Below, piece after piece: positions 1 through 63,904 of a DNA stretch of 64,000 bases (position 1 is its first letter; each line of letters begins with the position of its first letter). This stretch comes from a virus (Duplodnaviria; Heunggongvirae; Uroviricota; Caudoviricetes), in the IMG/VR virus record IMGVR_UViG_3300031414_000001, positions 96,001-160,000 of that record; one strand, given 5' to 3'. Under the pieces are notes generated by a model. That model ran no database searches and was not told the DNA's origin. It was given only the letters and a program-made list of their open reading frames with translations. The translations under genes and the position numbers were made by a program.

Positions 1-1071
1 GAAGCTAGTTACTAGCTCACCAGTGTTAGGGTCCATTACAGTACCAGAAGCCATCAATGGGATGTATGGGCAGTAGAATGCACCAGCATCAGTTTCTTGA
101 GAACCTTTATAACCGATTAGTACATCAGTACTGTCATCAGCATAGGTATCAACATAAACACGCATTGTGGAGTTTAGTACACCAACGAATTTCACGTTAG
201 TTGGAGCTTCGAATACACCTTCAGTAGTACGAGCAAAACTAGAAGTAGTTGCTGACTGTAGAATGGTTAGAGCAGTTGGAGAAACAACGGCCCAGTTCGC
301 AGCACCACGTTTGGTACGACGAGCAACTTCGTTTGCTTGACGGTTGATTAGAGTAGCTAGAGCAGCGTGTTCATCACCAACGAAGGTAGCAACACCAGTT
401 ACTTTAGATTGGTCATAAACAACAGCAGCAGCACCTGGTAGAGCACGTAGACGAGCTAGTAGTTCTTGGTCGATCTCAGTAGTGATTTCTTGTGCGATAG
501 CAGCCATTAGTTCAGCTTCAACGTCAATACCGTGTTGTGCTTGTGCATCTTGAGCAGATTCAACAGTCCAACGAGCAGATAGACGACGAGATTGAGCTTC
601 TACGGTTTCACGTAGAATACGGATGTTCACACGACGACCCATAACACCTTCTAGTTGAGAAGTAGGAGCAGCACGTGGTGCAGTGTTATCGGAGTTGATT
701 TCACCAGTATAAGATTTTGCAATCTTGTATGGAGAAAGTGCTTCTTCACCAGCAACAACACCTGGTGCGTTGTCAGCGTATTGAACACGTAGAGTGTGAA
801 TTTGACCAACTGGACCAGTCATAGGTTGAACACCGATGATTTCGTTAGCAATAACGGTTGGCATTACACGACGGATAATTGGTAGAATTACTTTGTTTAG
901 TGTAGCAATGTTACCAGCAGAAGTTGCACCAGCGGTAGCACTTTCACGTAGCATTACTTTACGTTGGTTATCTAGAACTGCTTCCATGACAGTTTTGCGA
1001 TTACCATTTAGACCTTCAACAAGCTTATCTTTTACAGCAGCCCATTTAGATTCAGTTAATAGTTGTGACAT
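1..1071 (-). CDS. gp23: Major capsid protein, T4 gp23-like (3' end runs off the window)
   Basis: Not in ORF track. Manual translation from ATG at 1071: MSQLLTESKWAAVKDKLVEGL...ILPIIRRVMPTVIANEIIGVQPMTGPVGQIHTLR, the gp23 signature. AGGAG SD upstream; follows scaffold and protease genes. Confidence 0.95.
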   Translation of the reverse strand, partial: MSQLLTESKWAAVKDKLVEGLNGNRKTVMEAVLDNQRKVMLRESATAGATSAGNIATLNKVILPIIRRVMPTVIANEIIGVQPMTGPVGQIHTLRVQYADNAPGVVAGEEALSPYKIAKSYTGEINSDNTAPRAAPTSQLEGVMGRRVNIRILRETVEAQSRRLSARWTVESAQDAQAQHGIDVEAELMAAIAQEITTEIDQELLARLRALPGAAAVVYDQSKVTGVATFVGDEHAALATLINRQANEVARRTKRGAANWAVVSPTALTILQSATTSSFARTTEGVFEAPTNVKFVGVLNSTMRVYVDTYADDSTDVLIGYKGSQETDAGAFYCPYIPLMASGTVMDPNTGELVTSF

Positions 1072-1115
1072 TATAATCTCCTTAAAAGATATTTTTTTGC
1101 TTTTCTGTATGCTTT

Positions 1116-1122
1116 TATTTAT
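1116..1122 (-). promoter_or_regulatory. Late promoter (ATAAATA, T4 gp55-type) for gp23
   Basis: ATAAATA on - strand ~45 nt upstream of the gp23 start; the same motif precedes most structural genes. Confidence 0.7.
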
Positions 1123-1148
1123 CACTCAGAAAAATTAGCATTTAATAA

Positions 1149-2273
1149 TTAACGTTTTTTATCCATTCCTGACAATTTAGTGATTTCATTTAGGAAATCT
1201 AAATCGTCTGAATCGAGTTCAGCGTTTTTAATGAAATTACTTTCACGGTTTCCGGTAACAACTTTACCTTCCGTTAAAGCATTTTTAGCCTTTGTATTAA
1301 CTGCTGGACGGCTAGGATTAGCAGCAGATTCATTTACAGTACCCTTCAGTACAGACTTGTGGTACTTGCTGAAATCATCTTTTAGCTTCTCGGTAGGAGT
1401 AGCAGCTAGTAGAGATTCCATAATTTGTTTTTGTTGATTAGTAAGAGGCTTAGTTAGTTCAGAGATGATAGCAGAGCGAGCCTGCGTATCTTCCATTACA
1501 CGAACTTTACGTTTAGCAGCTAAAGCTTCATCTCTTGCTTCTTTTAGAGCAAGTTTAGCAGCGATTGCTTCTTCTTCAGCTTCTTTAACTGACTCATTCA
1601 ACTCACGCAAAATAGAACTTTCGTTATATTGTTTTGAGTAGAACTCATTAGCAAATGCTTCAAAGATCTTACGACCAAACATGTTTTGTTTAGCTTCAAC
1701 TAGTTCACCTTTAAGAGCTTGTAGGTTCTTAGCGGTAGTTTCGGTAATATAGGATGCAGCGGATTCCGCAGTACGCTTAATGAAGTTCTCACGAGCTTCA
1801 GCGATTTGCTTAGAACCTTCAGCAATTAGTTTTACACGAGATTCGACTAATTGACGTTTTTCATCATGGAAGTCTTTAAGTTCTTCAGCCATAATATGGT
1901 TACTGAATTGCATGAACTTGCCAAGGCTTTCATTGATGTGTTTGCGTTCTTTACGCATTGATTTAACTTCTTCAGCTAGTACTGTGTTAGCGAAATCTGA
2001 GAAATTACCTAGTGTTTTACGTAGCTTAACACGGTCTTCAACTAGCTTACGCTTTTCAGCATAAACATCTGCCATTTGTTCGCTGATTACTTCAGCCATC
2101 ATTTGGTCTAGACCTTCAGTTAGTTTTGCTAAGTCTTCTTGGTAACGTTCTTTCATTTCTTCACGCATTTCAGCAGCTACATTAGCTTTTTCTTCATTCC
2201 ATGCTTCCTGAATTAGCTTTTTAGCTTCGTCAGAAAGAGATGATTCGTTTAGAAACTTATCCAATTTTGACAT
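1149..2273 (-). CDS. gp22: Prohead core scaffold protein, gp22-like
   Basis: Coiled-coil E/K/A-rich 374 aa between protease and MCP; L/V-x-E processing motifs (FLNES, TVNES, LTEG). Confidence 0.8.
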   Translation of the reverse strand: MSKLDKFLNESSLSDEAKKLIQEAWNEEKANVAAEMREEMKERYQEDLAKLTEGLDQMMAEVISEQMADVYAEKRKLVEDRVKLRKTLGNFSDFANTVLAEEVKSMRKERKHINESLGKFMQFSNHIMAEELKDFHDEKRQLVESRVKLIAEGSKQIAEARENFIKRTAESAASYITETTAKNLQALKGELVEAKQNMFGRKIFEAFANEFYSKQYNESSILRELNESVKEAEEEAIAAKLALKEARDEALAAKRKVRVMEDTQARSAIISELTKPLTNQQKQIMESLLAATPTEKLKDDFSKYHKSVLKGTVNESAANPSRPAVNTKAKNALTEGKVVTGNRESNFIKNAELDSDDLDFLNEITKLSGMDKKR

Positions 2274-2326
2274 TCGTTTTCTCCTTTAAAGTACTGAGAT
2301 AATATCTTGTACTCTTGATGTACAGA

Positions 2327-2334
2327 TATTTATA
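2327..2334 (-). promoter_or_regulatory. Late promoter TATAAATA
   Basis: Exact T4 late consensus upstream of the scaffold gene. Confidence 0.7.
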
Positions 2335-2345
2335 AATTTATTTTA

Positions 2346-2978
2346 TTAAGCTTTTAAATTCTTAAAAAATTGATGAATTTCATCATCAATCGAGTTATTA
2401 CGACCTTTTTGTGACTCAAATACACGATTTGTGCCAGCTACAGGTGCTCCGTACTTACTATTCAGAGATTCGAATACCGCTTTTGGATACGCATCTGGAG
2501 CACTTGGTTGTGCTACAATATCAATAGTTACGATTTCGAAATCAGATACAATACCGTTATGGTCAACGTTACCTGAACCACGAGAACTTACACCAAGCTT
2601 TACACCACTTTCAATCATAGTACGAATATCCTTACCATGAGTAGTATCAAGCAACATAATGGTAGCCATACCATTTGGGCCTTCCATCCAAACCTGAGTA
2701 ATCATTCCAACTACACGGTCTAAATTTACAGTTAAAGTTTCAGGGTGGTCACATTCACAAAGAATGCTTTCACCACGTGCGATACGTTCTGCCATATTCT
2801 TAACAGCATTCGCAATTTCAGCGAATGGATATACACGTTCATTTAAGTTACGTTGATCTGCTTGAATTGCTATCCCTTTAAGATAGCAATTCTTACGACC
2901 AGTCATCTGATCTTCTTTGTACTCTAAAACTATTTTAGAATCATTGAATGAAGACCATTCACGAATCATATTACTCAT
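2346..2978 (-). CDS. gp21: Prohead maturation protease, gp21-like
   Basis: Motifs LKGIAIQADQRNLNERVYP, ECDHP, LGVSSRGSG and DIVAQPSAPDAY. Confidence 0.93.
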   Translation of the reverse strand: MSNMIREWSSFNDSKIVLEYKEDQMTGRKNCYLKGIAIQADQRNLNERVYPFAEIANAVKNMAERIARGESILCECDHPETLTVNLDRVVGMITQVWMEGPNGMATIMLLDTTHGKDIRTMIESGVKLGVSSRGSGNVDHNGIVSDFEIVTIDIVAQPSAPDAYPKAVFESLNSKYGAPVAGTNRVFESQKGRNNSIDDEIHQFFKNLKA

Positions 2979-2998
2979 TTATGATCTTCCTTCTCTAA

Positions 2999-3844: not shown

Positions 3845-3888
3845 TATATCCTCCAAAAGATATACAAAAATTTATTTTGGTATGTCCT

Positions 3889-3896
3889 TATTTATA
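3889..3896 (-). promoter_or_regulatory. Late promoter TATAAATA
   Basis: Exact consensus upstream of the core protein gene. Confidence 0.7.
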
Positions 3897-9312: not shown

Positions 9313-9970
9313 GTGTCTGAATTTTCTGTACTGTTTGAGATTTGCCATACTTCGTATGTCAAAGAATTTTCGTTGTTCTGTACTTGCTTCGCTGCGTACA
9401 GAACAACTCAATTCAGTTCTATTTGATACGTTTAACACGATTTATACTGACGAGATTTGGGGAGTTTATCATCCCCCGCAAGGGGAATGATGTAAAAAAA
9501 GTACTAATTAAAGTACTCAATTCTGACGATGATAGTCGTCGTTTAATTGTATCGTAAATTTCTATTTTTCAATAGAACGTAAGCGGGTTGATCTGTTTCT
9601 CACTATTACGGTCATATTCAACGGTCGAGGGCTTACCTCACTCAGTACTAAGTCTATACAATCAAACTCAGCACCTATTCTTCTGGAATTTTAGACGGAT
9701 CAATATTGTATAAAATATGACCGCAAAATTCTTCTTCAGAAAAATTCCCTTAGCTATTTGGTAGGGGCGATTCCTATATATCTATCGAGGAAGTTCTATC
9801 AGCTTAGTGAACTTCTTTATAGTGCCGTATTGCCGTGGGTGGTACAAACTATGCCATCTCCTAACGGGTTTCTTCTGCACTGCGAACTGCTTGAACTTCT
9901 CATTGTGCCAATTACTTTTCATCGGCGACTGTTTATTTGTCTACGCTCACGCATAGTCAAGCAGGGTTGT
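9313..9970 (-). ncRNA. Candidate large structured ncRNA or transcription-primed origin
   Basis: No credible ORF; many hairpins and long-range helices; flanked by a promoter at 9977-10005 (-) and a terminator at 9281-9312. Strand taken from the promoter only. Confidence 0.45.
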
Positions 9971-10544: not shown

Positions 10545-12686
10545 TTATAGATCTAATACATCGCAAAATTCGATAGTACTGAAACTATCTTCTTTAACGA
10601 CTCGTAAGATTGAATTAGCACGTCCAATCAATTCTTCACGGTGTGATACCACAAAGATGTTTTTACCACGTACAGCACTCAAATCTTGAAGCATATGCCA
10701 TGAACTTTCAATACCACCAGTATCTAAACCATTATCTAGTAGTTCATCCACCAGCAATAGGTTAATACCCTGGAATAGAGACTCGTATGTATCACGGAAC
10801 GCAAGGTTCAACGCAATAATAACACGAGTACGCTCACCACGAGACAATTGTTTGAAGTCATATGATTGACCATTCAAATCAATATCAACGCTTAGGTCAT
10901 TTAGGAACTCTACTGTATGTAATGAACCTGATTTCTCAATCCAGTACTGTAATCGGTTGTTCAAGAATGAGATATTCTGGTCAATGATACGGCGACGGAC
11001 AAATGAATCTTTGTTCATTAGTAGTTTTGCCAAATAATCTTGGTGGTCAGCAAGTTTGACTAGCTTGTTATACTCGTCATAGTCCACATGTTGAATTGAG
11101 TTCGTTTGTAGAGTCTCAATTTGTTCAAAGAATGGATTCTGTGAGGATTGTTCACGTTCTAGTGAAGAAACCAACGTATCAAATGAACGTTGAAGGTCTT
11201 TCACTTCGTTAGTACTAAATGTTTCAGTGTATTCTTTGATTTCAGTACTTTCTAACTCCGCAAAGAGTGTCATAAGTTCTTCATCATAGATATTCACTTC
11301 TTCTTCAGTACTTTTCTTCTTCAATTCTTCTAGTTTATGCTCATGAAGCTTAGCTTCAGACAGTGAAGGGTAGAATGTAACTGGTTTCTCTGGCATATCA
11401 AACAATTCAATGCTTTCAACTGCTAGAGTTAAGGTATTCATCTCATTCAACGCAGATTCATAGCTGCTTTGTAGTTCAGTCAGATTTTCTTCTGCTGTTT
11501 TCTTCATAGTTTCATGATTATGATTGCCTTGAATCGTATTTTCACACATTGGACACTTGTTGTCAACCAAAGATGCTAAATGTTTCTCTGCTTTAGCAAT
11601 ATTGTTACTGATTAAGGTAACTTTAGAGGTAGCAGCATTCAGTTCTTGAGTTTTAAAGCGTTTAGTGTTATTCAACTCTTTCAACATCTGGTCAAGAGTG
11701 TTCCACGTTTCCAATTCTTCATGCAATGCCAGTTCAGAGGTAATATCGAACTTAGAAAGGTCATCAATACTCTTAAGTACTGTAGCTTTCTTCTGTATTA
11801 GTGATTCTGAGTATTCTTCATGTTTCACTGCTACCTGAGCTAGACGATTTTCCAGTACAGTACGGGAATTATTGTGTTTAATTGCTTCTTCCATCTTTGA
11901 TGCTAGGTCAAATAGAGATGTAAAGTCAATATCTTCGTAATCTGCCAGTTGTTCAACTAGAGATTCGATAGTCTTAGTCTTTTTCTGTTCAAATTCGTTA
12001 GCACGAAGTTGTAAAGATTCGATACTTTGAAGAATACGTTTATTAGACGCAGTAACAGTTTCAATTTTGAACTTCTCTTGATCTGCTTGATTCTTTGTTT
12101 CTCGATACATATCTTTTAGAAGGTTAGCTTTCTCAGTAAGTTGAGTAATACAAAGAAGTTCTTCTATCATTTCACGTTGCTTCTGCTGAGATAGAGACAG
12201 GAACGGCTCTACGTTAGCATTCATTACCACAATGTGTTCAAATAGGAGTTGTGAAATACCAAGAATCTCATTCAAGTCTTCTTGAGTATCTTTCTTCTCA
12301 CCTCTTGATTCATCAATTACTTCATTATCCTCACTTAGAGTAAGGAATGTGAAATACGTGGGATTACGCCCACGTTCAACACGATATTCAACACCGTTTT
12401 TCTCGAAATCAATAGTGACTTCGCAGTTTTTAGCATTAATCTTGTTTACCAAGTTAGGTATCTTAATATCGTTACCGATACTCTTACCATATAATCCAAA
12501 AACAATACCCTGAATGATGGCAGACTTGCCTACACCATTTCTACGCCCCGCATTATCGTCACCGACCGATGCATCGTTGTTTTGACCAAGTACTAACGCT
12601 AGGTCAGTACTGTCAAGCTCCAGAACTTGTGGAGCATTACCAAAAGAAAAGAAGTTACGCATACTAATGCGTTTAATGTTAAGCAT
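10545..12686 (-). CDS. gp46: Recombination exonuclease ATPase subunit, gp46/Rad50/SbcC-like
   Basis: Walker A NGVGKS, coiled coil with CPMC zinc hook, LSRGE signature, LLLVDE, SH; start ATG 12686 after GGAGG. Confidence 0.93.
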   Translation of the reverse strand: MLNIKRISMRNFFSFGNAPQVLELDSTDLALVLGQNNDASVGDDNAGRRNGVGKSAIIQGIVFGLYGKSIGNDIKIPNLVNKINAKNCEVTIDFEKNGVEYRVERGRNPTYFTFLTLSEDNEVIDESRGEKKDTQEDLNEILGISQLLFEHIVVMNANVEPFLSLSQQKQREMIEELLCITQLTEKANLLKDMYRETKNQADQEKFKIETVTASNKRILQSIESLQLRANEFEQKKTKTIESLVEQLADYEDIDFTSLFDLASKMEEAIKHNNSRTVLENRLAQVAVKHEEYSESLIQKKATVLKSIDDLSKFDITSELALHEELETWNTLDQMLKELNNTKRFKTQELNAATSKVTLISNNIAKAEKHLASLVDNKCPMCENTIQGNHNHETMKKTAEENLTELQSSYESALNEMNTLTLAVESIELFDMPEKPVTFYPSLSEAKLHEHKLEELKKKSTEEEVNIYDEELMTLFAELESTEIKEYTETFSTNEVKDLQRSFDTLVSSLEREQSSQNPFFEQIETLQTNSIQHVDYDEYNKLVKLADHQDYLAKLLMNKDSFVRRRIIDQNISFLNNRLQYWIEKSGSLHTVEFLNDLSVDIDLNGQSYDFKQLSRGERTRVIIALNLAFRDTYESLFQGINLLLVDELLDNGLDTGGIESSWHMLQDLSAVRGKNIFVVSHREELIGRANSILRVVKEDSFSTIEFCDVLDL

Positions 12687-12698
12687 CCTTGCCTCCAA

Positions 12699-13730
12699 TT
12701 ATAGTGAAAGATAAAGTTGAATCAGTAATTCATTGTCAATTACGTTAGATTTGTTTTCTTTTATCTGAGCAATTACAATTTCATCAACAGATTCAGTATT
12801 AGAGGCAAAATCCTCTGAACCGAAGTTGTTTTCAACCGTTTTCTTGCCAGGTATGATATTAAATTCACGAATTTTATACATCTTACAGAATGTTTCGCGA
12901 ATAAAACTAATTTCATCCATTGTAACGGGAATATCAACCTGAACTTTAGCTATTACGTTGTCTTCCAAGTAATAAGTTGGTTCAGATAGAAGTTCTGACA
13001 AAGTAAAGGTTCTGTACCGTGGAGCACCAGGCCACATTTTGAATTCTGGTTCACCACCATGTTCTAGGAACATGATTCCTCGTGCGTCATCCCATGTATC
13101 TGAGAAGTTATGAGGGAAACAGTTGCCAGTGTACAGAATTTTAGTACCTTTTGATGTAACTTTAGCTTGTCTCTTGTGGAAATGTCCACTAAAGACATAT
13201 TCACATCCACTAAACGAATCTTCAGTCTCTTTTCCATGATCTGGCATTTCAACCATCTTATTAAGAAGGTATCCCGGCAGTTCTAAGTGACCAAAAACAT
13301 ACTTACTACGTAATGAAGGTAGTTGTTTGTATTCATCGTCAATCATAAACGGAATAAATGAACAATCATCAATGGTTTCAATCTGATTAATGAAGTGAAT
13401 ATGTTCAAAAACAGATGCCATGTTGATACTTGTCACATCACGTTTATTTTTATGGTACATATCATGGTTCCCAACAAGAAAATACGTCATATCGAAGTTC
13501 TCATTAAGTAGATGCATGATTTGAAGACCATAATCTAGTGTATTGATGTTAATATTACTACGATTGTGGAAGAAATCTCCCATAAAGATACAAGTTTTAA
13601 TATCTCGTTCTTTTGCTTCATCGATCATGAACTTTACAAAGTTAACACAATCAATGTTATGTTCTCTACTGTTATTCTTTAGACCTAAGTGAATATCAGT
13701 GAACACAATAGACTTATCAAATAGTGCCAT
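12699..13730 (-). CDS. gp47: Recombination exonuclease nuclease subunit, gp47/Mre11/SbcD-like
   Basis: Metallophosphoesterase motifs DIHLG, GDFFH, GNHD, GHL, SGHFH. Confidence 0.93.
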   Translation of the reverse strand: MALFDKSIVFTDIHLGLKNNSREHNIDCVNFVKFMIDEAKERDIKTCIFMGDFFHNRSNININTLDYGLQIMHLLNENFDMTYFLVGNHDMYHKNKRDVTSINMASVFEHIHFINQIETIDDCSFIPFMIDDEYKQLPSLRSKYVFGHLELPGYLLNKMVEMPDHGKETEDSFSGCEYVFSGHFHKRQAKVTSKGTKILYTGNCFPHNFSDTWDDARGIMFLEHGGEPEFKMWPGAPRYRTFTLSELLSEPTYYLEDNVIAKVQVDIPVTMDEISFIRETFCKMYKIREFNIIPGKKTVENNFGSEDFASNTESVDEIVIAQIKENKSNVIDNELLIQLYLSL

Positions 13731-14577
13731 TTTGCTTCCTTTCTAGCATTTTCATCTCAATTTCAATTTGTCGTGTATGACTAGGGTTAAACCCTTGAAG
13801 TTCTAGAAGGTCATCACGAATGTTACGTACATTCTTTTCTGAATTAAGTACAGAACGGAATGCGTTGTTAACAAATGAGGTGTAATATGCGAAAGGATTA
13901 AGTTGTACGGCTGGTTTTACCTTTTTGTACAGAATACTTTCATTGAATAGCAACGCATTCTTTACTAGTTGAATACGAGCATCACCCATCATCTCGTCTA
14001 AGTATGTATAGTTACGATAGTTAGGTTTATGAGATATTTCTTCTGCCAATTTAATGAACATCTTACCCAATTCATTAGTTTGACGACCATGTGTTAGGCT
14101 GAAAACGCCATCTTCAAGATCACCTTTCCAATGAGAACGAGCAACTTCATACAATTCACCAGTGTTATCAGCGATATAATGTTTGAAGGGTTCAAAGTTG
14201 GTACGAACTTTCTTCTGATCTTCATTATTTTCAATGAACGGGATATGTTCATTCGTAATCACACGAATAACAACTTCGTCAACGGGAATATCATGAACCA
14301 GTAAGTTCTTTTCATCAGCGTACTCTTTTGCTTTCTTGGCAGTGAAAGCATGTTCAGCACGTATTTTGTCTAGCGTACTCGAATTTAAGCGTTTAATTCG
14401 CTCCGCAGTAGCTAGTTCAAGTAATTCTTCAGTAATTTCGGACTCGTCGAAGACGATATAATCGTACATATTGTAAGCATCGTCTAGAACCCAACAATAT
14501 GACATTTTACTGATATGAATTTCTCTTAGCAAATCCGCATTGTTCAAGTACTTCTTGCGTTTTGGTTTAATTGCCAT
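13717..14577 (-). CDS. gp55: Late transcription sigma factor, gp55-like
   Basis: YLNNADLL...ELGKMFIKLAEEISHKPNYRNYTYLDEM...NPFAYYTSFVNNAF; adjacent to gp47/46 as in T4; start ATG 14577 after GGAG. Confidence 0.85.
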   Translation of the reverse strand: MAIKPKRKKYLNNADLLREIHISKMSYCWVLDDAYNMYDYIVFDESEITEELLELATAERIKRLNSSTLDKIRAEHAFTAKKAKEYADEKNLLVHDIPVDEVVIRVITNEHIPFIENNEDQKKVRTNFEPFKHYIADNTGELYEVARSHWKGDLEDGVFSLTHGRQTNELGKMFIKLAEEISHKPNYRNYTYLDEMMGDARIQLVKNALLFNESILYKKVKPAVQLNPFAYYTSFVNNAFRSVLNSEKNVRNIRDDLLELQGFNPSHTRQIEIEMKMLERKQNGTI

Positions 14578-20869: not shown

Positions 20870-21358
20870 ATGAGTAATTGGGTATTAACAAGTTCAGATC
20901 CTGGTCTTTTAAATGATATTAAAAACTTTGAAGGTACAATTGCGTATCAAACAAAAGTTGGTTATTATAAAGATGGTAAATTCTGGACATATAAAGATAG
21001 CTTAGGTTATCCAACAATTGGGTATGGACATTTGATTTTGACTGGTGAAGATTTTAAACAAGGTCTAAACGAAAGTCAAGCAAATACCTTACTAGCTAAG
21101 GATCTCGCATCTAAAGTAGCTGATGCTAAATCACTATATGAACAATATGGTATGAAGGGTGGAATTGCTCTACAAAAAGTTTTAACTCAAATGGTATTCC
21201 AAATGGGTAAACCAAGAGTATCGCAATTCAAAAATGCTCTAACTGCTATGGGTAAAGGTGATTATAAGCTTGCTGCTAAAGAGATGCGTAATTCTAATTG
21301 GTATAAACAAACTACATCTCGTGCTGAAACACTAGCTCGAATTGTAGAATCACTATAA
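20870..21358 (+). CDS. T4-type (GH24) lysozyme, probable endolysin
   Basis: FEG...YKDSLGYPTIGYGHL...QMVFQMG...SNWYKQTTSRA; own ATAAATA at 20834-20840. Confidence 0.85.
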   Translation: MSNWVLTSSDPGLLNDIKNFEGTIAYQTKVGYYKDGKFWTYKDSLGYPTIGYGHLILTGEDFKQGLNESQANTLLAKDLASKVADAKSLYEQYGMKGGIALQKVLTQMVFQMGKPRVSQFKNALTAMGKGDYKLAAKEMRNSNWYKQTTSRAETLARIVESL

Positions 21359-45724: not shown

Positions 45725-48700
45725 ATGTATTCTATAAAAACTGATCTTGACGTATCTGGTAATCAAACGATCCAAAAAGATCTTTTGGTTAATGGTAGTG
45801 CAGTCATTACGAATGATTTGACCGTAGGTGGTACAATCAACTTCGCTAATGCTACATTTACTCAGATTACAGTCACAGGAGCAGCGAATCTAAACAACGT
45901 AACCTCAACAGGTACAGCTACATTGAACAATGTAAACGTTTCTGGTAATACAGCACTTGGTGATTCCGGCACTGATACTGTTACTGTAAACGGCGTTTCT
46001 ACATTCAATGCTGCGATCACTGCGAAAAGCAATGTATCTATTGAAGGTAATACAGTTGTTGGTGACGCAAGTTCCGACACTCTAACTGTTAACGCAACAA
46101 GCACATTCGTAGCACCAGCACTATTCAATGGTGATGTTACTATTGGTGATGCTCCTGCTGATGCTCTAACTGTAAATTCCACTGCGAATTTAAAAAATAA
46201 CGTAACTATCGGTGAAAACGCAACTGACGTTCTAACTGTTAATAGTACCTCTAACTTTGCTAACAATGTTACTCTTGGTTCTGATGGCACAGATACACTA
46301 ACCGTGAATGCTGCTACAAACATTAAGAACAACATGATTATCGGTGAAAATGCTACTGATACTCTAACCATTAACAGTACTACCACTATTGCTGGTCCAC
46401 TAACTGCTGATGATATTAATGTCGGTGGTGACTTAACTGTAACTGGTGCTACTACTCTAGAATCTTTAACTGTTAATGGCGTAACTAACCTAAATGATGA
46501 CCTAATCATGGCATCAGGTACTAGTGCTTCCTTCCAAGATGTTACCATTAATGGTACTCTAAGCGGTGCGTTCACTATTGCTAACGGTAGTTTCAACACA
46601 CTATCTGTATCTGGTTCTTCTAGTCTACACGCAACTACTGTTGCTGGTAACTTAACTGGTACTGGATATTCTGCTACATTTAATAACTATATCGTAAACG
46701 GTGCTTCTGGTTTAATTAGTTTCAACTATAACGACCCAGCACGTCCATCTGATATTAAAACTAGTATTGAGCCATACAAAGTAAGTACTCAAGAAATTCA
46801 AGTTAACGTTGCTGACCTACAACGTGCTACCATCGGTGATGTAACATATTCCGATTATGGTCTAACCGCACTAGGTAAAGCATCAATTGACTATCTAGAT
46901 ATTGTTGGTAACAGCACTACTGGTGCTTCTCGCCCACAACTAACTGTTGCTGGAAACTCAACACTAGGTGGAACAACAACGGTTAACAACCTAGCTATTA
47001 CTGGTTCTATTACTGGTCTAAGCTTCTCTGATCTAAACGTAACTGGTGATTTGACAGTTGCTGGAACTTCTGATTTTACTCAGAAAGCAACATTCGTTGA
47101 TCTAGAAAGTACTGGTCAAGCAACTTTCAACGATGTTGAAATTAATGGTGATCTAACTGGTTCATTCACTATCACAAATGGTAGCTTCGGTACAATCTCT
47201 GTATCCGGTCAAAGCAACTTGAACTCTGTAGTTCTAAGTGGTAACGTAACTGGTACAGCACAAACCGCAACCTTCGGACAATATGTTGTCGCTGGTAGTA
47301 CTGGTGTTATTGGATTCTCCTATAACGACCCAGCACGTCCATCTGACATTAAATCAGCTATTGAACCTTACAAAATCAGTTCTTCTGAATTCCAAGGTCA
47401 AGACGCAGATTTCGAACATGTTGTAACTGGTGACGTGACTTACGTTGACTACGGTCTAACTGGTCAAGGTCTAAACAAACTTGATTACCTAGATATTACA
47501 GGTAACAGTACAACTGGTACTTCACGTGAGCAACTAACCGTTGCTGGAAAATCCAAATTTGTTGGTGATGTAGAATTCCAAGGTGTTGTAACTGGTCTAA
47601 CTGTTGATGTAACTGGTCAAGATATTACTCCAAACTCTGTTGTAGCTGCTGCTGGTCTAACTGGTGCTACTGTAACAAGTACTGGTGCTGCTAACCTTAA
47701 CTCTGTTTCCGTAACAAATAATGCTTCTGTTTCTGGTACTACTACTCTTAACAACCTAGTTGTTACTGGTACTGTAACTGGCGTAACTGCTGAAGCTAAC
47801 GTTGATGGTCTAGATATTGCTCCGAATTCTGTTGATGTAACAACAACACTTGATGTTGCTGGTGCTACTACTCTAGCGGGTACTACTGCTTCAACACTAA
47901 ACGTAACAGGTGCTACCACACTAGCTGCTACTTCTGCTACTACACTAAGTACTTCCGGTCTAGCTACTCTAAACAGTGCTACAGTAACTGGTACAAGTAC
48001 ATTAGGTGTTGTAAACGCGGGTGCGACAACTGCGACAAGCATTACATCTCCATCTTATCTTGGTAATGTAACTTTCGCTGATGATGTAACAATAACTGGT
48101 ACACTAACTCCAAGTGCGATTGATTTGAGTACTACTGATGTAGCTGCTAAATCTCTAACCACTGCTGAGGACGTTACTGTAGGTGGAAACCTAGCTGTAA
48201 CTGGTACTATCGACCTATCCAATGCTGACGTTGGGGCGAAAACATTTGTTGCTTCTGATACTGTTAACGCAAGTACTCTACCAGTACTAGCAAGTACTAC
48301 AGCTACTATCGGTACTGTAAATGCTACAACATTAAACGCAACTGGTACTACTACTTTAGGTGTAACTAATACTGGTATTCTAACTGCTACAAGCATTGTA
48401 ACTCCTTCTATCGGTAACGCAACTAACGATGTAACAGTAACTTCTGCGTTGATCGCTGCTGATGATCTAACAGTTCAAGGTAACTTAGTACTACAAGGTG
48501 GTCTAGACCTATCTGCTGTTGACATTGAAGCACAATCAATTCACACAACTGGTAACGCAACATTTGATGGTAACGTAACTGTTGGTGGTTCTATTGACCT
48601 ATCTAACGCAAACGTATCTGCTATCACCTTTACTGCGACAAGCTCTAGTGTTGCTAACGTACTTCCAGTACTAAGCTCAACAACTGGTACAATCGCTACA

Positions 48701-55341: not shown

Positions 55342-55636
55342 CTTCTTTATCTTCCAGTTTAGATAATAATTCTTTAATACTATCATCTTCTAAAGAGAAA
55401 CTTGTTTCAAGAGCCGCTAGAATAACGGCTGCTGATTTAATCAGAGATTGACGGAATTCGTCAAACGAAACATGTTTGTCAGGTCTAGAAGCACTTTCAA
55501 ATAAGTAGTACCCAGCTAACCCTGTCCAATCATTCTTCGTTTTAAGATGATCTGCTAAAGTATTTGGGTTGCTCATTTGTTTCAAGCGTTCTTCGATAAT
55601 CAACTGGATTATCTGTTCCCTACTAACTTTTGACAT
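55328..55636 (-). CDS. Hypothetical; possible MazG-like all-alpha fold
   Basis: EERLKQ...W...FRQSLIKSAAVILAALE pattern. Confidence 0.4.
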   Translation of the reverse strand: MSKVSREQIIQLIIEERLKQMSNPNTLADHLKTKNDWTGLAGYYLFESASRPDKHVSFDEFRQSLIKSAAVILAALETSFSLEDDSIKELLSKLEDKEDDSQ

Positions 55637-56310
55637 TATTCACCTTTACGTTCTTTCAATGCTTTTTTGACAAGTTCTACTGCTTTAGCTTGTGAGATAC
55701 CTTCTGGTAATTCAACAAATAGTGAATCACTTGTTTGTTCATCAGTCTGAACATCAGATGGTAGTACTAGTACTTGTGCTTGAGGACGAAGACTTGGGTC
55801 TAGGTTATAAGCACGTTCGCGGTTTTCACGAGCTAGGGTTTCATACTTAGCAGCTTCTTCTAATAGACGAGATACGATAGTACCTTGTTCTGGATATTGA
55901 ACAGTTGCTTCTTGTTGATCGTAAGGATTGAATGCCTTAACAGTACCGTCTTGTACAACAGCACTTTGGTTAATTTCTTCATTCAGTACGTTTAGAGGAA
56001 TCTTATTGGTTCCACCAACATGCATGTCAATATCTAGGGTATTTTGTTTACGGATATAGCCCATACGGTGAAGTACGGAAAGCATGTTTCCACCTTCTAG
56101 GGTTCCGATTTTATCCATTACATCCCATAGTTCAATTGAACTCTGACCACGACCGAGAACTAGCTCAGCAACACGGTTAGAATAAACTTCAGGGAGAGAG
56201 TCACGATAGACTACTAGGCAATGGTGTGGATCATTTTCCAGTTGACGCCATACGACGAAAACACGAGAACCAGTACTACGGACAACACCACAATGACGTA
56301 CAATACTCAT
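55636..56310 (-). CDS. Hypothetical protein
   Basis: ORF; start ATG 56310 after AGGAG. Confidence 0.6.
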   Translation of the reverse strand: MSIVRHCGVVRSTGSRVFVVWRQLENDPHHCLVVYRDSLPEVYSNRVAELVLGRGQSSIELWDVMDKIGTLEGGNMLSVLHRMGYIRKQNTLDIDMHVGGTNKIPLNVLNEEINQSAVVQDGTVKAFNPYDQQEATVQYPEQGTIVSRLLEEAAKYETLARENRERAYNLDPSLRPQAQVLVLPSDVQTDEQTSDSLFVELPEGISQAKAVELVKKALKERKGE

Positions 56311-56311
56311 A

Positions 56312-56554
56312 TTATTCTCCTTGTGCTTCATCAGCAGAATCAACTTCAGCTTGTGCTTGACGAGCTTCTTGATCTGCTAGAATAGCAGCGGAGAAATCCT
56401 GGAATCGAGATACGATTGGTGCAACATCTGCGAGTTCTTTAACATTAAAGATACCACGCTCAATTGCTGCTTCCATGATTTTTGTAGCATTGATAATATC
56501 AATGAATTCTAGTTGTGGTCCAACTACGGTTTCTTCTTGAATTTGATTGCTCAT
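56312..56554 (-). CDS. Hypothetical small protein
   Basis: Start ATG 56554 after GGAG; first gene after promoter 56588-56616. Confidence 0.6.
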   Translation of the reverse strand: MSNQIQEETVVGPQLEFIDIINATKIMEAAIERGIFNVKELADVAPIVSRFQDFSAAILADQEARQAQAEVDSADEAQGE

Positions 56555-56587
56555 TATATACACTCCATGTATTTTTGAATTATCTAT

Positions 56588-56616
56588 ATTATACCACAAA
56601 AACGTGGTACGTTCCA
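56588..56616 (-). promoter_or_regulatory. Promoter TGGAACG-N11-TGTGGTATAAT for the td operon
   Basis: Consensus copy. Confidence 0.8.
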
Positions 56617-56668
56617 AATATTTGTAAGGTCGCCATCCTTGACGACCTTCTATTTAGTATTCTGCTTC

Positions 56669-58054
56669 TTACTGTTCGAGTTCGTAATGAACCGTCATGC
56701 CGAAAGGAGCTTCTACTTTAGGGTTTGAGTGGATTACAAACAATGTATCGCAGTAGTTTGCATCACCCCATGAACCATATGGCTCACCATCCGTGAACAT
56801 GACTAACTGTTTTGGACAGTAATCATCCTCTTTCATATAATCCCATACTTTAGTAAACAAAGTACCGCCACCACCATATACAGGATATTCAAGAATTTGT
56901 TGTTCTTGTCCAGTAGTGTAATCATGTACTTCATAAATTTGAGTATCGAATGTCAAAACACGAATTTTGAATTGTGAGAATTGCTTTGTAATACCATATA
57001 CTTCAGACAGGAAATCACGTAACCATTCAGAACGAATACTACCAGATGCATCAAGTGCGATACAAATGTCAATATCTTCATCGGGTTTCATTCCAGGATA
57101 GATAGGCATACCAAAACCAATACCATTTGACCATGAACGACGGTTTGGCATCATATAAGTTACGTCATTCTTAATAAGAGAACGTAAAGTACGGTTAAGT
57201 TTAGAACGCCAATCAATTTTAGGTTCTTTAAAGTCCTGAACCATAGCACGAATTTCTGGTGGAGCACCTTGTGCCATTGCTGCGTTAATCATTGCGTCTT
57301 TAAACGCATCCATGAATCCTTCCAATTCTTCTTGTGAGAAGTCAGGGAAATCATCATAATCACCACCCGAACCAGAACCATCTTGAGTATCAGTATCGTC
57401 AGAATCTGAATCAGATTGGTTATTACCTTGTTGCGGAATATTATGCTGGTCTAAAGTACCACCACCAGTTCCTTTACCACCTTGACCAGATTCTTCTTGT
57501 TCCTTACGTTCCATAAGGATATTGTAGATTTCTTCTGCTGCCATTTTATCAAAATCAGGTGAGAATAACCATGAATTACGAATTTCACCTAATGCTGGAT
57601 CGCGTTTGATAATTTGGTTAATTGCGTAATCAGCAGCTTTGTTCCACATTTTAGCATCACGTGTGCCTTTACGCAAGAAGTGGTTATACGCACAGTGAAG
57701 AATTTCATGACACACTGCTGCGATTAAGTTTTGTTGGGTTAACCCATTAAGAGCATCATTTATCTGTTCAGCAGTAATATCATCAATACTTTCACGAAGC
57801 ATTTCTTCATATTCTTGACGACGAACAGGGTCTTCGATACCCATAATGAATTCTACGTTGTAATATAGATGCTTACCATCTACCGCTAATGTACGACACC
57901 AAGTGTTATTAGCTACTGGCTCTAACTGAGCAGCCAAAATACCAAAGAATGGACATGCCATAATCATAGTAGTACGTGCTACAATAAGTCTGTCGAAACA
58001 TTCTTTTGCTTTTTGCTCCGATACTTCGTAACGGACTCGTTTTTGTTTTGTCAT
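56669..58054 (-). CDS. Zincin metallopeptidase + vWA domain protein (DUF2201-like)
   Basis: TLAVDG, HEILH, WNKAADYAIN; MIDAS DASGS, GGGGT, FTDG; start ATG 58054. Confidence 0.85.
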   Translation of the reverse strand: MTKQKRVRYEVSEQKAKECFDRLIVARTTMIMACPFFGILAAQLEPVANNTWCRTLAVDGKHLYYNVEFIMGIEDPVRRQEYEEMLRESIDDITAEQINDALNGLTQQNLIAAVCHEILHCAYNHFLRKGTRDAKMWNKAADYAINQIIKRDPALGEIRNSWLFSPDFDKMAAEEIYNILMERKEQEESGQGGKGTGGGTLDQHNIPQQGNNQSDSDSDDTDTQDGSGSGGDYDDFPDFSQEELEGFMDAFKDAMINAAMAQGAPPEIRAMVQDFKEPKIDWRSKLNRTLRSLIKNDVTYMMPNRRSWSNGIGFGMPIYPGMKPDEDIDICIALDASGSIRSEWLRDFLSEVYGITKQFSQFKIRVLTFDTQIYEVHDYTTGQEQQILEYPVYGGGGTLFTKVWDYMKEDDYCPKQLVMFTDGEPYGSWGDANYCDTLFVIHSNPKVEAPFGMTVHYELEQ

Positions 58055-58070
58055 AAAATCCTCAAATAAC

Positions 58071-58093
58071 AAAAGGGGCATAAGCCCCCTTTA
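58071..58093. terminator. Intrinsic terminator between ATPase and vWA genes
   Basis: AAAAGGGGC-ataa-GCCCCCTTT. Confidence 0.6.
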
Positions 58094-58098
58094 TTGTA

Positions 58099-59433
58099 TT
58101 ACTTCAGTGTACGTGCTTTACGCAGCAGTGGACCATATTCAGTAACGAATGGTTTAAATGCTGGAACTTCTTTATACGTAATGTTTACGTCAGCATCAGT
58201 AATAGCACGAATCGCGTGTACGATAAGTTCTTTCTGAGTATCAGAGAATTGTGAATCCAGGAAGGTTACAAAACTAGTACAGTACAAGCACCAGTCATCA
58301 AGTGATAGTGTACCATTCTGTTTGTATTCGAAGAATTCAATGATTTTCTGAGTAAGGCTCAGAGTGATGAAGTAGTTTTTAGAAATTTCTTTCTTGTGTT
58401 CACCGAAATCAGTTACAACACCAGTAAGAATATCCATTACATCTGGCAGGTCAGCCATGTTTTTGATGTAAGTTGTGTATTCAATACCAGCAGTACTACC
58501 AACACGACCAGCAACCATTGCTTTATATACTGGATCAGAAATACCTTTACTTCCACGAACGTTTTCAATGTCAGATACACGAGTCCATGAACGTGGGGAT
58601 GAACCACCACTATGACTTGTATCTTTTGGACTTAGGGTATTGAAGTGTTTTTCACCAGTCTGGTGAATAAACGCGATAGTACCTGGATTCAGACGTTTTG
58701 GAATTGCGAAGTTATTCAGCCAATCATTATAGTCTGGAATCATTTCTACGTGAGTCATACGGTCACGCAGTGGAGTTGCTAGTGAGAAGGTTACTCCACC
58801 ATCAGTTTCACGGTTCCCTGCTGCCAGAATCAAGCAACTTTCAGGAAGAACAAGTTCACCAACACGGCGATCAAGAATCAACTGATAAGATGCTGCCTGT
58901 ACAATTGGCATTGCGGAGTTAATTTCATCAAAGATGATAACACCTTGCCAATCTTTAGGAAGTTGAAGGATTTTAGGAGCAGCCCAAACAACACCAGTTT
59001 CTTCAGTGTATCCAGGATGATCAGCCAGTTCATGTTCCAGTACTACTTTACCAGCACGGTTCAGATAGTACTTAACAGGAATTGGAATACCACGAAGATC
59101 AGATGGTTCAACCTGTGAAAGACGGAAATCAATAAAGTTTTCATCTTGATCCAGCAGAGATTCTTCAAAGGCACGATAATCAGCCATTGTAACCATTTCA
59201 TCATCTGGATCTTCGGCACGTTGTAGCATATATGCTAAACGGTTAATATTGTTTTTACGCAGTGGATATTGTTCATTTGCGTATTGAAGGGCAATTGCGG
59301 ATTTACCAATGCCCGGAGAACCCCAAATCATCAAACTATCACGGCATAAATCTGCCACAATCATTGCTTCCATAATTTGAGAAGGTTTTAAATCATATTT
59401 CAGGGCGTTTTCAGGTGCTACAGCGTTACTCAT
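58099..59433 (-). CDS. MoxR-related AAA+ ATPase
   Basis: WGSPGIGKS, IDFRLSQVEPSDLRGIP, IIFDEIN, AAGNR, PLRDR, SPRSW; exact start uncertain (59433 or 59451). Confidence 0.85.
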   Translation of the reverse strand: MSNAVAPENALKYDLKPSQIMEAMIVADLCRDSLMIWGSPGIGKSAIALQYANEQYPLRKNNINRLAYMLQRAEDPDDEMVTMADYRAFEESLLDQDENFIDFRLSQVEPSDLRGIPIPVKYYLNRAGKVVLEHELADHPGYTEETGVVWAAPKILQLPKDWQGVIIFDEINSAMPIVQAASYQLILDRRVGELVLPESCLILAAGNRETDGGVTFSLATPLRDRMTHVEMIPDYNDWLNNFAIPKRLNPGTIAFIHQTGEKHFNTLSPKDTSHSGGSSPRSWTRVSDIENVRGSKGISDPVYKAMVAGRVGSTAGIEYTTYIKNMADLPDVMDILTGVVTDFGEHKKEISKNYFITLSLTQKIIEFFEYKQNGTLSLDDWCLYCTSFVTFLDSQFSDTQKELIVHAIRAITDADVNITYKEVPAFKPFVTEYGPLLRKARTLK

Positions 59434-59952: not shown

Positions 59953-59954
59953 GA

Positions 59955-61327: not shown

Positions 61328-61349
61328 AAGAACTAATTCCTTTTATTAA

Positions 61350-62774: not shown

Positions 62775-62786
62775 ATTCTTCTCCTA

Positions 62787-63362
62787 TTAAGAAATTAGTC
62801 TTAGTAGCTTAGCTCGATCAGCAGGAGATAATGAAGAAAGACGATCTGAAACGCTAGATCCTGAATTTCCACCTTGTCCTTGACTTGGTTGTGGATTATT
62901 TTGTCCTTGACCTTGTGGCTGTCCCTGGCCTTGTTGACCTTGAGATTGGTCAGTACTGCCTTGGGATTGTTGCTGATCTTGAGCATCATTGCCGTAGTCA
63001 GTATTTAGCTTCTGAACTGCTTTCATTAATGCCGCACCAACATCTTTAGGAACGAATGAACGACGTTCATTATCACCTAAGAAAGAGGTATCAAGTTTAT
63101 TACCTTTAAAAAATGCTGCTACATCTGCGTATGGAACTGCTTGTGGATGTGAACCGTACTTACGTCCAATATAACGCTTGAAGTCACTCCATAGTTGGTT
63201 TGCCATTTGTCCAGTTTCTTGAGCACCTTGCTCAACTTGTCCTGAACCAAAGAAACCTTTTACTTTGCCTTTTGCCGAGTCAACCGCTGATTGTGTACGA
63301 CTATAAGGACGTTCGTTTAATGGTTCTGGTTGACCATCAAACATTTCTTCTAAAAGACTCAT
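62787..63362 (-). CDS. Probable internal head protein with Q/G-rich tail
   Basis: MSLLEE..PLNER N-terminus; late operon. Confidence 0.5.
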   Translation of the reverse strand: MSLLEEMFDGQPEPLNERPYSRTQSAVDSAKGKVKGFFGSGQVEQGAQETGQMANQLWSDFKRYIGRKYGSHPQAVPYADVAAFFKGNKLDTSFLGDNERRSFVPKDVGAALMKAVQKLNTDYGNDAQDQQQSQGSTDQSQGQQGQGQPQGQGQNNPQPSQGQGGNSGSSVSDRLSSLSPADRAKLLRLIS

Positions 63363-63364
63363 AA

Positions 63365-63904
63365 TTACCCCTTCTTACCGAAGCCAGCAGACATATACTC
63401 TGCGTATGATTTATTCTTAGTACTGTCAATTGCATCTTTTACTGCTTTATCAGCACGACCTTGACCGCCGATTTCCTCAGCATTTACTTCAGGAACTTCT
63501 TTGTATTCAGGGTCTAAAAGACGTGGTTCGTATTCATCAAATTGAATATCATCTTCACAATCAGCAATTTCTTCCTGATATGGTTCTAGATTGTTACGAA
63601 CATGAATTAGTGCTTCTGACCAACTCAATAGACTGCCGATTTCAAATAGTAAGATTTGAGGTTGTACACCACGCTTACATTTAAAATCAAACATCCAAAT
63701 TTCACCACAATCTAGATTATAGAAATCTGTTGGGCGATCTTGGAAGATTGTTTTCTTCATTGGACCAACTTCAAAAGCATCATAACGGTCAGTAAGTCGA
63801 GTAACAACTTTATGCAATTCTTCGGAGCTTGGCTCACACGCAAATTTTACACGGTATGAATATTCTGGAGTAAGATCTGTTAAAATTTTCTGTAATTTAT
63901 TCAT
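63365..63904 (-). CDS. Hypothetical late protein
   Basis: ORF with GGAG SD; ATAAATA at 63933-63939 (-). Confidence 0.6.
   Translation of the reverse strand: MNKLQKILTDLTPEYSYRVKFACEPSSEELHKVVTRLTDRYDAFEVGPMKKTIFQDRPTDFYNLDCGEIWMFDFKCKRGVQPQILLFEIGSLLSWSEALIHVRNNLEPYQEEIADCEDDIQFDEYEPRLLDPEYKEVPEVNAEEIGGQGRADKAVKDAIDSTKNKSYAEYMSAGFGKKG

Follow-up and report, generated by a model that had tools for sequence, protein, structure and literature searches.

The 64,000-nucleotide stretch of phage DNA analysed here (the window; positions 96,001 to 160,000 of IMG/VR record IMGVR_UViG_3300031414_000001) raises the question of why a six-letter palindrome, AGTACT, should recur far more often than chance allows in a phage genome, and of what might read it. 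A sequence-only reading of the window had described AGTACT as a highly iterated palindrome present in several reading frames, in genes of both orientations and in intergenic DNA. That observation is confirmed. AGTACT occurs 172 times (127..63424, one site per 372 bp, spread over nearly all genes of both orientations), compared with 24.4 ± 4.7 (maximum 36) in 100 dinucleotide-preserving shuffles. The local counts given in that reading were right, with 26 sites in 1–13 kb and 16 in 48.1–50.8 kb, although the GC content is 38% and not the estimated 36%. Three sites (48272, 48283 and 48293) lie within 27 nt (48272..48298, plus strand) inside a 1697-aa ORF (45725–50818), where they encode A-S-T, P-V-L and A-S-T in two codon registers. 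A tandem AGTACTAGTACT at 55763..55774 lies inside a 235-aa ORF on the minus strand (55636–56343) and is read as Q-V-L-V-L. Three further sites (9500, 9512 and 9644; 9500..9649) fall in the 965-bp gap between the baseplate-hub gene and the Endo VII gene, which holds no ORF of 150 aa or more, showing that sites also occur outside long ORFs in this window.

The sequence-only reading had stated in advance that its case would fail if the enrichment vanished under a synonymous-codon-preserving shuffle or was fully explained by its GTAC core or codon-pair bias. Shuffling synonymous codons within each gene gave 40.5 ± 5.7 sites (maximum 58) against 169 observed in the coding sequences of the window, and 254 ± 16 against 1054 genome-wide (4.2×). 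The 371-kb genome, which belongs to a Rak2/CBB-type jumbo phage, has 1166 sites against 123 expected (9.5×), making AGTACT the most enriched of the 4096 hexamers. The core alone does not account for this: GTAC is enriched 2.5×, AGTAC 4.5× and AGTACT 9.5×, and T follows AGTAC in 65% of cases against a base frequency of 31%. Under a maximal-order Markov model the ratio is only 1.18, because the 5-mers are themselves enriched. Genome-wide density is 3.5 sites per kb between genes and 3.1 per kb within genes, and the counts by frame are 521 for AGT-ACT, 371 for nnA-GTA-CTn and 159 for nAG-TAC-Tnn (108, 45 and 16, respectively, in the window). Codon usage and protein motifs are rejected as explanations by the synonymous and codon-order shuffles and by the equal density in intergenic DNA. 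The word instead distorts the proteins: 523 of 802 Ser-Thr dipeptides are written AGT-ACT, against 113 expected, and the dipeptides S-T, Q-Y and V-L are 1.35–1.5× too frequent (S-T 1.5×).

The two halves of the word act together, and weak symmetric flanks (C at −1, T at −3/−4) are identical in intergenic and coding sites. An RNA-level motif was rejected on the same grounds; half-site asymmetry on the sense strand is mild and fits codon pairs such as GGT-ACT. Sites are spread uniformly: the number of genes with zero sites is 178 against a Poisson expectation of 177.9, and spacing is slightly more even than random, with a coefficient of variation of 0.93 against 1.00 ± 0.03. A site-free stretch of 1.9 kb (12612..14546) covers the gp47/SbcD-like and gp55-like genes, but a gap of this size fits near-random spacing. 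The longest site-free stretch of the whole genome, 2.2 kb, also lies in the window (56278..58491), where the random expectation for the largest gap is about 2.4 kb.

Comparison with related genomes indicates purifying selection. Sites are conserved more than frame-matched hexamers (50% against 32% in CBB and 45% against 23% in Yen9-04), and codons inside sites are kept at silent positions more often than the same codons elsewhere (in CBB, GTA 87% against 53% and TAC 82% against 44%). About half of the sites nevertheless turn over between genera, while density stays near 100 per 45 kb. This turnover and the graded enrichment of the sub-words would be compatible with a neutral drive, in which a mutation or repair bias keeps generating AGTACT without any function. 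We consider this very unlikely, given the retention at silent positions and the protein sequences bent towards the word. Among the three closest genomes, one-step gains from near-sites are not elevated (3 of 624, against a control median of 0.9%), and losses slightly outnumber clear gains, while several lineage-specific gains needed two or three substitutions, including amino-acid changes such as GATACC to AGTACT. The absence of elevated one-step gains and the slight excess of losses also count against a selected mark. Conversion of GCGC to GTAC by double deamination was rejected, as only about 47 AGCGCT sites would be expected against 1166 AGTACT.

The trait is shared by RaK2 (7.9× over the whole genome), UE-S1 (6.0×) and CBB, GAP32, BF, Yen9-04, XbC2 and Kaldavass (6–7×), always with zero GCGC. 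It is absent from the related Pseudomonas phage PAC2 (0.15×, with 300 GCGC), and T4, JSE, KVP40, T5, FelixO1, rV5 and N4 are not enriched. In a 4.68-Mb E. coli chromosome there are 409 sites, against 1099 for the reversed word (0.37×). The phage genome thus has one site per 318 bp and E. coli one per 11.4 kb, a 36-fold difference, while GCGC shows the opposite contrast (zero in the phage and about one per 140 bp in host flanks).

The same two marks occur in resident elements of E. coli. A non-coding stretch of the window (9441..9920) has 72% identity to an unannotated stretch of two E. coli chromosomes, and in one of them it lies inside a 10.7-kb integrative island at ffs that is AGTACT-rich and GCGC-free. 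Two island variants at ffs have 17 sites against 2.9 expected and 25 against 3.5, with 0 and 1 GCGC; their IS3 insertion and recent cargo lack the marks. Five of the six close AGTACT pairs in the whole chromosome lie in the island. The ffs island is carried by the E. coli strains LR-29-1 and S1-ESP-03-A. An unrelated 35.6-kb prophage in ybhA, carried by E. coli ESBLEC_MG48, has 53 sites against 12, and 0 GCGC against 43.7. E. coli K-12 has no AGTACT-dense element. The jumbo phage encodes its own DNA polymerase (annotated in its relatives), and no polymerase gene is annotated in the prophage. If the prophage is therefore copied by host enzymes, the two do not share a replication system, yet the host genome is depleted in the word, which also speaks against a neutral drive. 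The prophage has its own capsid, portal and terminase genes, so it need not depend on a jumbo phage. A few ATAAATA words, resembling T4-type late promoters, lie 30–55 nt upstream of prophage genes, but this evidence is too thin to be used as a sign of hijacking.

The interpretation offered by the sequence-only reading, a self-mark for a phage methyltransferase or DNA-binding protein, or a Chi-like recombination or packaging signal, is partly supported. The excess does act at the DNA level, is not a by-product of protein sequence or codon usage and resembles the cyanobacterial palindrome HIP1. A mark for a phage methyltransferase is not supported; for a DNA-binding protein or a Chi-like, recombination or packaging signal, we could neither identify nor exclude a reader. 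A methyltransferase target, as in Elhai's model of HIP1, in which methylation-linked biased repair or an epigenetic function creates and keeps the sites, has some grounds. For HIP1, presence of a methyltransferase correlates with the motif (PMC4390886), and the search for phage methyltransferases that the sequence-only reading had called for found three in this genome. The PF01555 enzyme is closest to the N4-cytosine methyltransferase M.PvuII among solved structures, and the Dam-like PF05869 enzyme is present in all four AGTACT-rich phages tested and absent from PAC2. However, the PF01555 enzyme is missing from RaK2 and UE-S1 and the C5 enzyme is missing from BF, although all three phages are AGTACT-rich, and the AGTACT-rich prophage and islands have no annotated methyltransferase. 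The neighbourhood of the PF01555 gene holds RNA-repair genes (RlaP, Thg1 and DUF4326) and not a restriction partner. Modification calling had been named as a check, and published nanopore data exist for Kaldavass, which is about 90% identical over the aligned region; comparison of native and amplified DNA reports modification only at GATC, CCWGG and TGCAT (PMC11780129), although that genome should hold about 1100 AGTACT sites. One-mismatch neighbours are not depleted (AGTATT 1.03×, AGCACT 1.66×), unlike the signature of very-short-patch repair. Methylation is thus very unlikely. A ScaI-type restriction–modification system does not fit either, as a profile search of the genome for the ScaI endonuclease (PF09569) gave no match at E ≤ 1; HinP1I (PF11463) was likewise not found.

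A further possibility is that a host-encoded factor of Enterobacterales, for example a nucleoid-associated protein, topoisomerase or other DNA enzyme, reads AGTACT and that several unrelated low-GC mobile elements have independently enriched the word to exploit it. Three unrelated kinds of element in the same host order carry the mark without a shared candidate protein, and the depletion of the host genome would be expected if stray sites are costly to the cell. The central hexamer of the E. coli SlmA-binding sequence GTGAGTACTCAC, a symmetric dimer site, is AGTACT (PMC3020112), and the host range is likewise Enterobacterales. However, the SlmA half-site is G, T, purine, A, G, pyrimidine, whereas phage sites show no G/T preference at positions 1–2 and have a pyrimidine at position 3 (−1) in 65% of cases with G, which is avoided, at only 7%. 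The genome holds 0 consensus copies and 8 GTNAGTACTNAC against about 4 expected, and no TetR_N protein (PF00440) was found in the phage, nor a Phd/YefM (PF02604) DNA binder. Other enterobacterial phages (T5, FelixO1, rV5, N4, JSE and T4) and an adjacent lambdoid remnant show no enrichment, and the strict pairing with a total GCGC ban suggests one specific system rather than general host physiology. We regard a host reader as unlikely, though less so than methylation or neutral drive.

We also considered the lineage's own T4-type type II topoisomerase, for which sites would be enriched to speed decatenation and relaxation of a 370-kb genome. The enzyme is symmetric, and a cut A|GTAC|T would leave the 4-base stagger typical of such enzymes; this geometric fit was not tested and no cleavage data exist. 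The genes (genome 40199–41614 and 41664–43685) are conserved in RaK2 and UE-S1 and gave no tblastn hit in PAC2. However, JSE, KVP40 and T4 have T4-type topoisomerase II yet have 0, 2 and few copies of the word, respectively, so that the enzyme is rejected as a sufficient cause, and the prophage and islands encode no topoisomerase. This is the least likely of the alternatives.

A direct search for the reader did not reveal one. Searches with tblastx and phmmer show that the prophage and islands share only lysozyme, DUF4326 and a non-coding RNA (with spurious ORFs inside it) with the phage, none a plausible reader, which leaves room for a host-encoded reader or for independent readers in each element. 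Of 116 ORFs conserved in RaK2 and UE-S1 but not in PAC2, we scanned 49 and found metabolic, RNA-repair, topoisomerase and virion proteins but no obvious DNA-binding or nuclease candidate. The Kaldavass annotation was read over one 50-kb block, which holds almost only hypothetical proteins.

The reading that we favour, with no more than moderate confidence, is that AGTACT is a highly iterated palindrome kept by selection and specific to the Rak2/CBB lineage of enterobacterial jumbo phages. We take the analysis to show that the word is read as a symmetric hexamer on double-stranded DNA, that what selection maintains is its density, about one site per 320 bp everywhere in the genome, more than any particular position, and that it is not a codon or protein by-product. 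That it is an identity mark, probably serving to tell phage DNA from host DNA, is an inference from the density contrasts and not from any functional data. These phages have unmodified cytosines, unlike T4, so in this view some protein machinery can tell phage from host DNA by sequence alone. The unidentified reader would most likely be a symmetric (dimeric) factor acting in infected cells, and the word could be a protective or attenuating signal against the nucleases that clear host DNA, or a loading, binding or cleavage site for a replication, recombination, topology or packaging enzyme. The prophage family and the islands at ffs would then copy the code. A more far-reaching version, which is possible but doubtful, is that these phages, lacking the base modifications that T4 uses, employ a two-word code (AGTACT present, GCGC absent) to let their own enzymes spare, replicate or package phage DNA while destroying host DNA, and that prophages and islands have copied it so that they survive or are propagated in cells infected by such phages.

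We found no mention of this enrichment in the phage papers searched. How a virulent phage with chemically ordinary DNA tells its own genome from that of the host is an open question outside the T-even paradigm of modified bases, and this lineage offers a very clear and easily manipulated signal in cultured phages on laboratory hosts (CBB, GAP32, RaK2, 121Q-like, Kaldavass). It could reveal a new DNA-reading factor, may expose satellites or prophages that mimic the code, and would give HIP1, the function of which has been unknown for decades, a tractable counterpart. The double signature is also a simple marker for finding members of these element families in genomes and metagenomes.

The closest known system is HIP1 (GCGATCGC; PMC5861425; PMC4390886). 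Both are short palindromes that are hyper-abundant in all reading frames and between genes, both are conserved beyond background, so that selection rather than neutral replenishment maintains them, and neither has a known reader. AGTACT is, however, a 6-bp AT-rich word at 6–10× and not an 8-bp GC-rich word at 15–300×, it lives in viruses and small mobile elements rather than in cellular chromosomes, no methyltransferase clearly accounts for it, and it is always coupled with a total absence of GCGC. The co-occurring cognate methyltransferase and biased 1-nt deviations described for HIP1 (Elhai, 2015) were not found here: two of the three methyltransferases do not track the trait, the third is a Dam-type enzyme, and near-site substitutions show no bias. 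The periodic distribution at 10–90 kb (Xu et al., 2018) was not examined, the genome being too short; only short-range spacing was analysed.

Chi (GCTGGTGG), read by RecBCD, and other functional over-represented oligomers (DUS/USS, KOPS) are also marks whose effect depends on how often a DNA-tracking machine meets them and which distinguish one class of DNA from another. A Chi-like nuclease-control sequence would be over-represented in the DNA to be spared and rare in the DNA to be destroyed, and AGTACT fits this with its one site per 318 bp in the phage against one per 11.4 kb in E. coli. Chi, KOPS and DUS are asymmetric and mostly oriented and have known readers, whereas AGTACT is a perfect palindrome that marks the virus rather than the cell, and it is about 15 times denser than Chi is reported to be in E. 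coli. Recognition by a translocating helicase-nuclease was not assayed, and no such enzyme could be tied to the word. The same phages carry E. coli Chi at 12–14×, so the lineage does carry another over-represented sequence mark of the kind read by a nuclease. The stoperators of Cluster A mycobacteriophages are likewise many copies of one protein-binding word scattered through a phage genome, including inside genes, but they are about 30 asymmetric, oriented 13-bp repressor sites in temperate phages, compared with more than 1000 palindromic hexamers in a virulent jumbo phage.

AGTACT, the ScaI site, also runs opposite to the avoidance of short palindromes in phage genomes: T5, FelixO1, rV5 and N4 mildly avoid it. 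The rest of this genome is an extreme case of such avoidance, with zero GCGC and 24 of the 64 hexamer palindromes absent. The two marks predict that ScaI and RsaI cut these phages very often and HhaI never.

The window covers bases 96001-160000 of a single 370,971-bp contig with 38% GC, and its genes include a T4-type portal, a baseplate hub with lysozyme, gp46/47-like nuclease subunits, a ClpA-like ATPase and very large virion proteins. The DNA is 86-87% identical to that of Erwinia phage Kaldavass and Xanthomonas phage XbC2 and 75-77% identical to that of Pectobacterium phage CBB, Cronobacter phage GAP32 and Serratia phage BF. This allows us to classify the phage as a Mimasvirus-like member of the Rak2-type jumbo myophages, called 'group 2.2' in PMC7824862.

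The sequence-only reading had described AGTACT as a highly iterated palindrome throughout the window, and this observation is correct. AGTACT occurs 172 times in the window, compared with 24.4±4.7 in dinucleotide-preserving shuffles, and the local counts given in that reading also hold, with 26 sites in the first 13 kb, 16 in 48.1-50.8 kb and a triple at 48272-48298. In the whole genome there are 1166 sites (one per 318 bp), which is 9.5-fold the composition expectation and the highest ratio of all 4096 hexamers; CAGTACTG occurs 205 times (45-fold). The excess is graded (GTAC 2.5-fold, AGTAC 4.5-fold and AGTACT 9.5-fold), and a maximal-order Markov model therefore gives a ratio of only 1.18. 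The two halves of the word nevertheless act together: the base following AGTAC is T in 65% of cases, against a base frequency of 31%. Density is up to twice the genome average (43-64 sites per 10 kb) at genome positions 250000-290000, outside the window, in a region of short ORFs in which many intergenic sites sit in a repeated context, ...TTTCAGTACTGATAGGATAGCAAAGGGGCT....

Loss of the enrichment under a shuffle of synonymous codons had been named in advance as the outcome that would overturn the observation. Such a shuffle within each gene, which preserves the proteins and the codon usage, gave 254±16 sites against 1054 observed in coding sequence and, for the window alone, 40.5±5.7 against 169; the word is thus a feature of the DNA and not a by-product of coding. 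Of 802 Ser-Thr dipeptides, 523 are written AGT-ACT, against 113 expected from codon usage, and the dipeptides that can carry the word are themselves too frequent (S-T 1.49-fold, Q-Y 1.45-fold and V-L 1.35-fold). Sites fall in all three registers, in genes of both orientations and at the same density between genes (3.5 per kb) as within them (3.1 per kb). There is a weak symmetric flank preference, C at -1 (41%, with G at only 7%) and T at -3/-4, which is the same in 111 intergenic sites as in all sites; it is an amplification of a background CAG/GAG bias and not a long extended motif. A tandem AGTACTAGTACT at genome positions 341955-341966, also outside the window, lies in sequence that looks like part of a tRNA gene, ...CCAACTGAGCTAC, AGTACTAGTACT, GACAGGACTCGAAC....

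The word is kept by selection for density. In an alignment of the orthologous 41-45 kb from seven genomes, window sites were retained more often than frame-matched hexamers: 78% against 61% in Kaldavass, 50% against 32% in CBB and 45% against 23% in Yersinia phage fHe-Yen9-04. Where the amino acid is conserved, codons inside sites keep their silent base more often than the same codons elsewhere; in CBB the values are 87% against 53% for GTA, 82% against 44% for TAC, 68% against 60% for ACT and 83% against 76% for AGT. About half of the sites still differ between genera, although every genome holds about 100 per 45 kb. Among the three closest genomes losses and gains are roughly balanced, several gains needed two or three substitutions (including amino-acid changes) and one-step gains from near-sites are not elevated. 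One-mismatch neighbours are not depleted, so there is no signature of very-short-patch repair. The sites are spread uniformly: 178 genes have no site, against a Poisson expectation of 177.9, the longest gap is 2.2 kb and the spacing is slightly more even than random.

We also counted the word in other phages. Whole-genome counts are 937 against 118 expected in RaK2, 735 against 123 in UE-S1 (Asteriusvirus) and 1166 against 123 in this phage. GCGC is completely absent from all three, where 498 copies are expected in this phage, 218 in RaK2 and 289 in UE-S1, and 24 of the 64 hexamer palindromes have zero copies in this phage. The orthologous regions of CBB, GAP32, BF, Yen9-04, XbC2 and Kaldavass show 6-7-fold enrichment and no GCGC. 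In contrast, the related Pseudomonas jumbo phage PAC2 (portal 44% identical) has 15 AGTACT sites against 98 expected, 300 GCGC and no missing hexamer palindrome. T4 (a region only), JSE and KVP40 are not enriched, and T5, FelixO1, rV5 and N4 carry fewer AGTACT than the reversed control word. An E. coli chromosome of 4.68 Mb has 409 sites, against 1099 for the control word, so that AGTACT is 36 times denser in the phage than in a host. The E. coli Chi octamer GCTGGTGG is also in excess, with 41 copies against 3.5 expected in this genome (for example at window positions 18490, 20532, 38470, 44919 and 49430 on the plus strand), and within coding sequence it is about threefold above the synonymous-shuffle expectation; RaK2 has 18 against 1.3, UE-S1 has 24 against 1.8 and PAC2 has one. 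The T4-type late-promoter word TATAAATA, on the other hand, is depleted and strand-biased, with two copies on the plus strand and 14 on the minus strand against about 30 expected per strand, following the dominant gene orientation.

The same double signature occurs in unrelated small elements. A non-coding element of about 480 nt at window positions 9441-9920 is present in five copies in the phage (near genome positions 20998, 105441, 186904, 251045 and 311287) and has a 72% match in two E. coli chromosomes, those of LR-29-1 and EEC_W5. In LR-29-1 the match lies in a 10.7-kb integrative island at the 3' end of ffs (14005-24706 of L015, the sequence that we retrieved from NZ_AP027515.1), which is bounded by 24-nt direct repeats. 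The island has 17 AGTACT against 2.9 expected and 0 GCGC against 9.6, whereas the 29.6 kb of flanking chromosome has 3 against 6.8 and 209 against 129, respectively. Five of the six AGTACT pairs within 30 bp in that whole chromosome lie in the island. An IS3 inside the island, which interrupts the integrase gene, has host-like composition. The island also holds an internal inverted copy of both att-adjacent ends (20953-21233, 99% identical), as if an attP-like junction had been trapped inside. A second variant of the island, in E. coli S1-ESP-03-A, with different cargo and no similarity to the phage, has 25 AGTACT against 3.5 and 1 GCGC against 12.8. Its cargo genes (19576-22575 of L020, the retrieved sequence of this island), an AAA ATPase and a hypothetical protein, have 30-34% GC and are AGTACT-poor, while the backbone, which includes a helicase annotated as 'type III restriction enzyme res subunit', is AGTACT-rich, suggesting a swappable cargo slot, possibly for defence genes.

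A pattern scan of IMG/VR found further AGTACT-rich contigs, one of which led to a 35.6-kb prophage in ybhA of E. coli ESBLEC_MG48. This prophage has its own capsid, portal, terminase and tail genes and a serine integrase, and contains 53 AGTACT against 12 expected, 261 GTAC against 122 and 0 GCGC against 43.7; a lambdoid remnant next to it has none of these features. By tblastx and phmmer, the islands and the prophage share only a lysozyme domain, a DUF4326 protein and the non-coding RNA with the jumbo phage.

The interpretation offered in the sequence-only reading is supported in part: the excess does act on the DNA itself, but of the readers that it proposed, a phage methyltransferase is probably not the answer. 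A search for methyltransferases, which that reading had asked for, showed that the genome encodes a PF01555 N4/N6 methyltransferase, a C5 methyltransferase and a Dam-type PF05869 enzyme. For Kaldavass, however, comparison of native and whole-genome-amplified nanopore signal reported modification at GATC, CCWGG and TGCAT only (PMC11780129). The PF01555 enzyme is absent from RaK2 and UE-S1, and its copy in CBB (KU574722.1, 88424-89284) contains an in-frame TAA. The C5 enzyme is absent from BF, and in UE-S1 (ON568341.1, 50728-52605) its gene matches in two pieces about 1 kb apart, possibly because of an intron or an inserted homing element. The Dam-type enzyme is present in all four AGTACT-rich phages tested; it belongs to the phage N-6-adenine-methyltransferase family of NCBI (TIGR01712), a family that is usually GATC-specific. 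Other readers do not fit either. No ScaI- or HinP1I-family endonuclease, TetR-type protein or Phd/YefM-type protein was found in the genome. The E. coli SlmA site GTGAGTACTCAC shares the central hexamer, but SlmA requires G, T and a purine at positions 1-3 (PMC3020112), whereas the phage sites show no such flanks and avoid G at -1, and the genome holds no consensus copy.

What the analysis demonstrates is that a symmetric hexamer on duplex DNA is under selection for density in a lineage with unmodified DNA, that it is contrasted 36-fold with the host and that it is always paired with the reverse contrast for GCGC. That the two words together let some machinery treat phage and host DNA differently, with AGTACT as the positive mark read by a symmetric factor, is our inference. 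In this view AGTACT could attenuate or protect against the nucleases that clear host DNA, by analogy with Chi, which these phages also carry in excess (12-14-fold), or it could serve as a loading, binding or cleavage site for a recombination, replication, topoisomerase or packaging enzyme. The T4-type topoisomerase II is conserved in the AGTACT-rich phages, no tblastn hit for it was found in PAC2 and a symmetric cut A|GTAC|T would fit the usual 4-base stagger; however, JSE, KVP40 and T4 have such enzymes without the enrichment. As the small elements share no candidate protein with the phage, the reader is either supplied by jumbo phages in co-infected cells, which would make the small elements mimics, or encoded by the host. 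We did not identify the reader: of 116 ORFs conserved in RaK2 and UE-S1 but not in PAC2, the 49 that were scanned gave no DNA-binding or nuclease candidate. The absence of the trait from other enterophages argues against a general host benefit.

The RaK2 and CBB genome papers contain no mention of the word; 'ScaI' in the former matches only a culture medium, and palindromes are not referred to in the latter. Nor is it mentioned in the passages that we consulted of the Kaldavass paper and of the comparative jumbo-phage review, two texts that were not searched for AGTACT itself, and full-text searches of the literature for AGTACT in connection with phages, and for related terms, returned nothing relevant among the papers listed. 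The nearest described phenomenon is HIP1 of cyanobacteria, which is also selected and also unexplained (PMC5861425, PMC4390886). Iterated oligomers maintained by selection are already known as a kind of feature; what differs here is the unexpected place in which one is found, and its function is unresolved.
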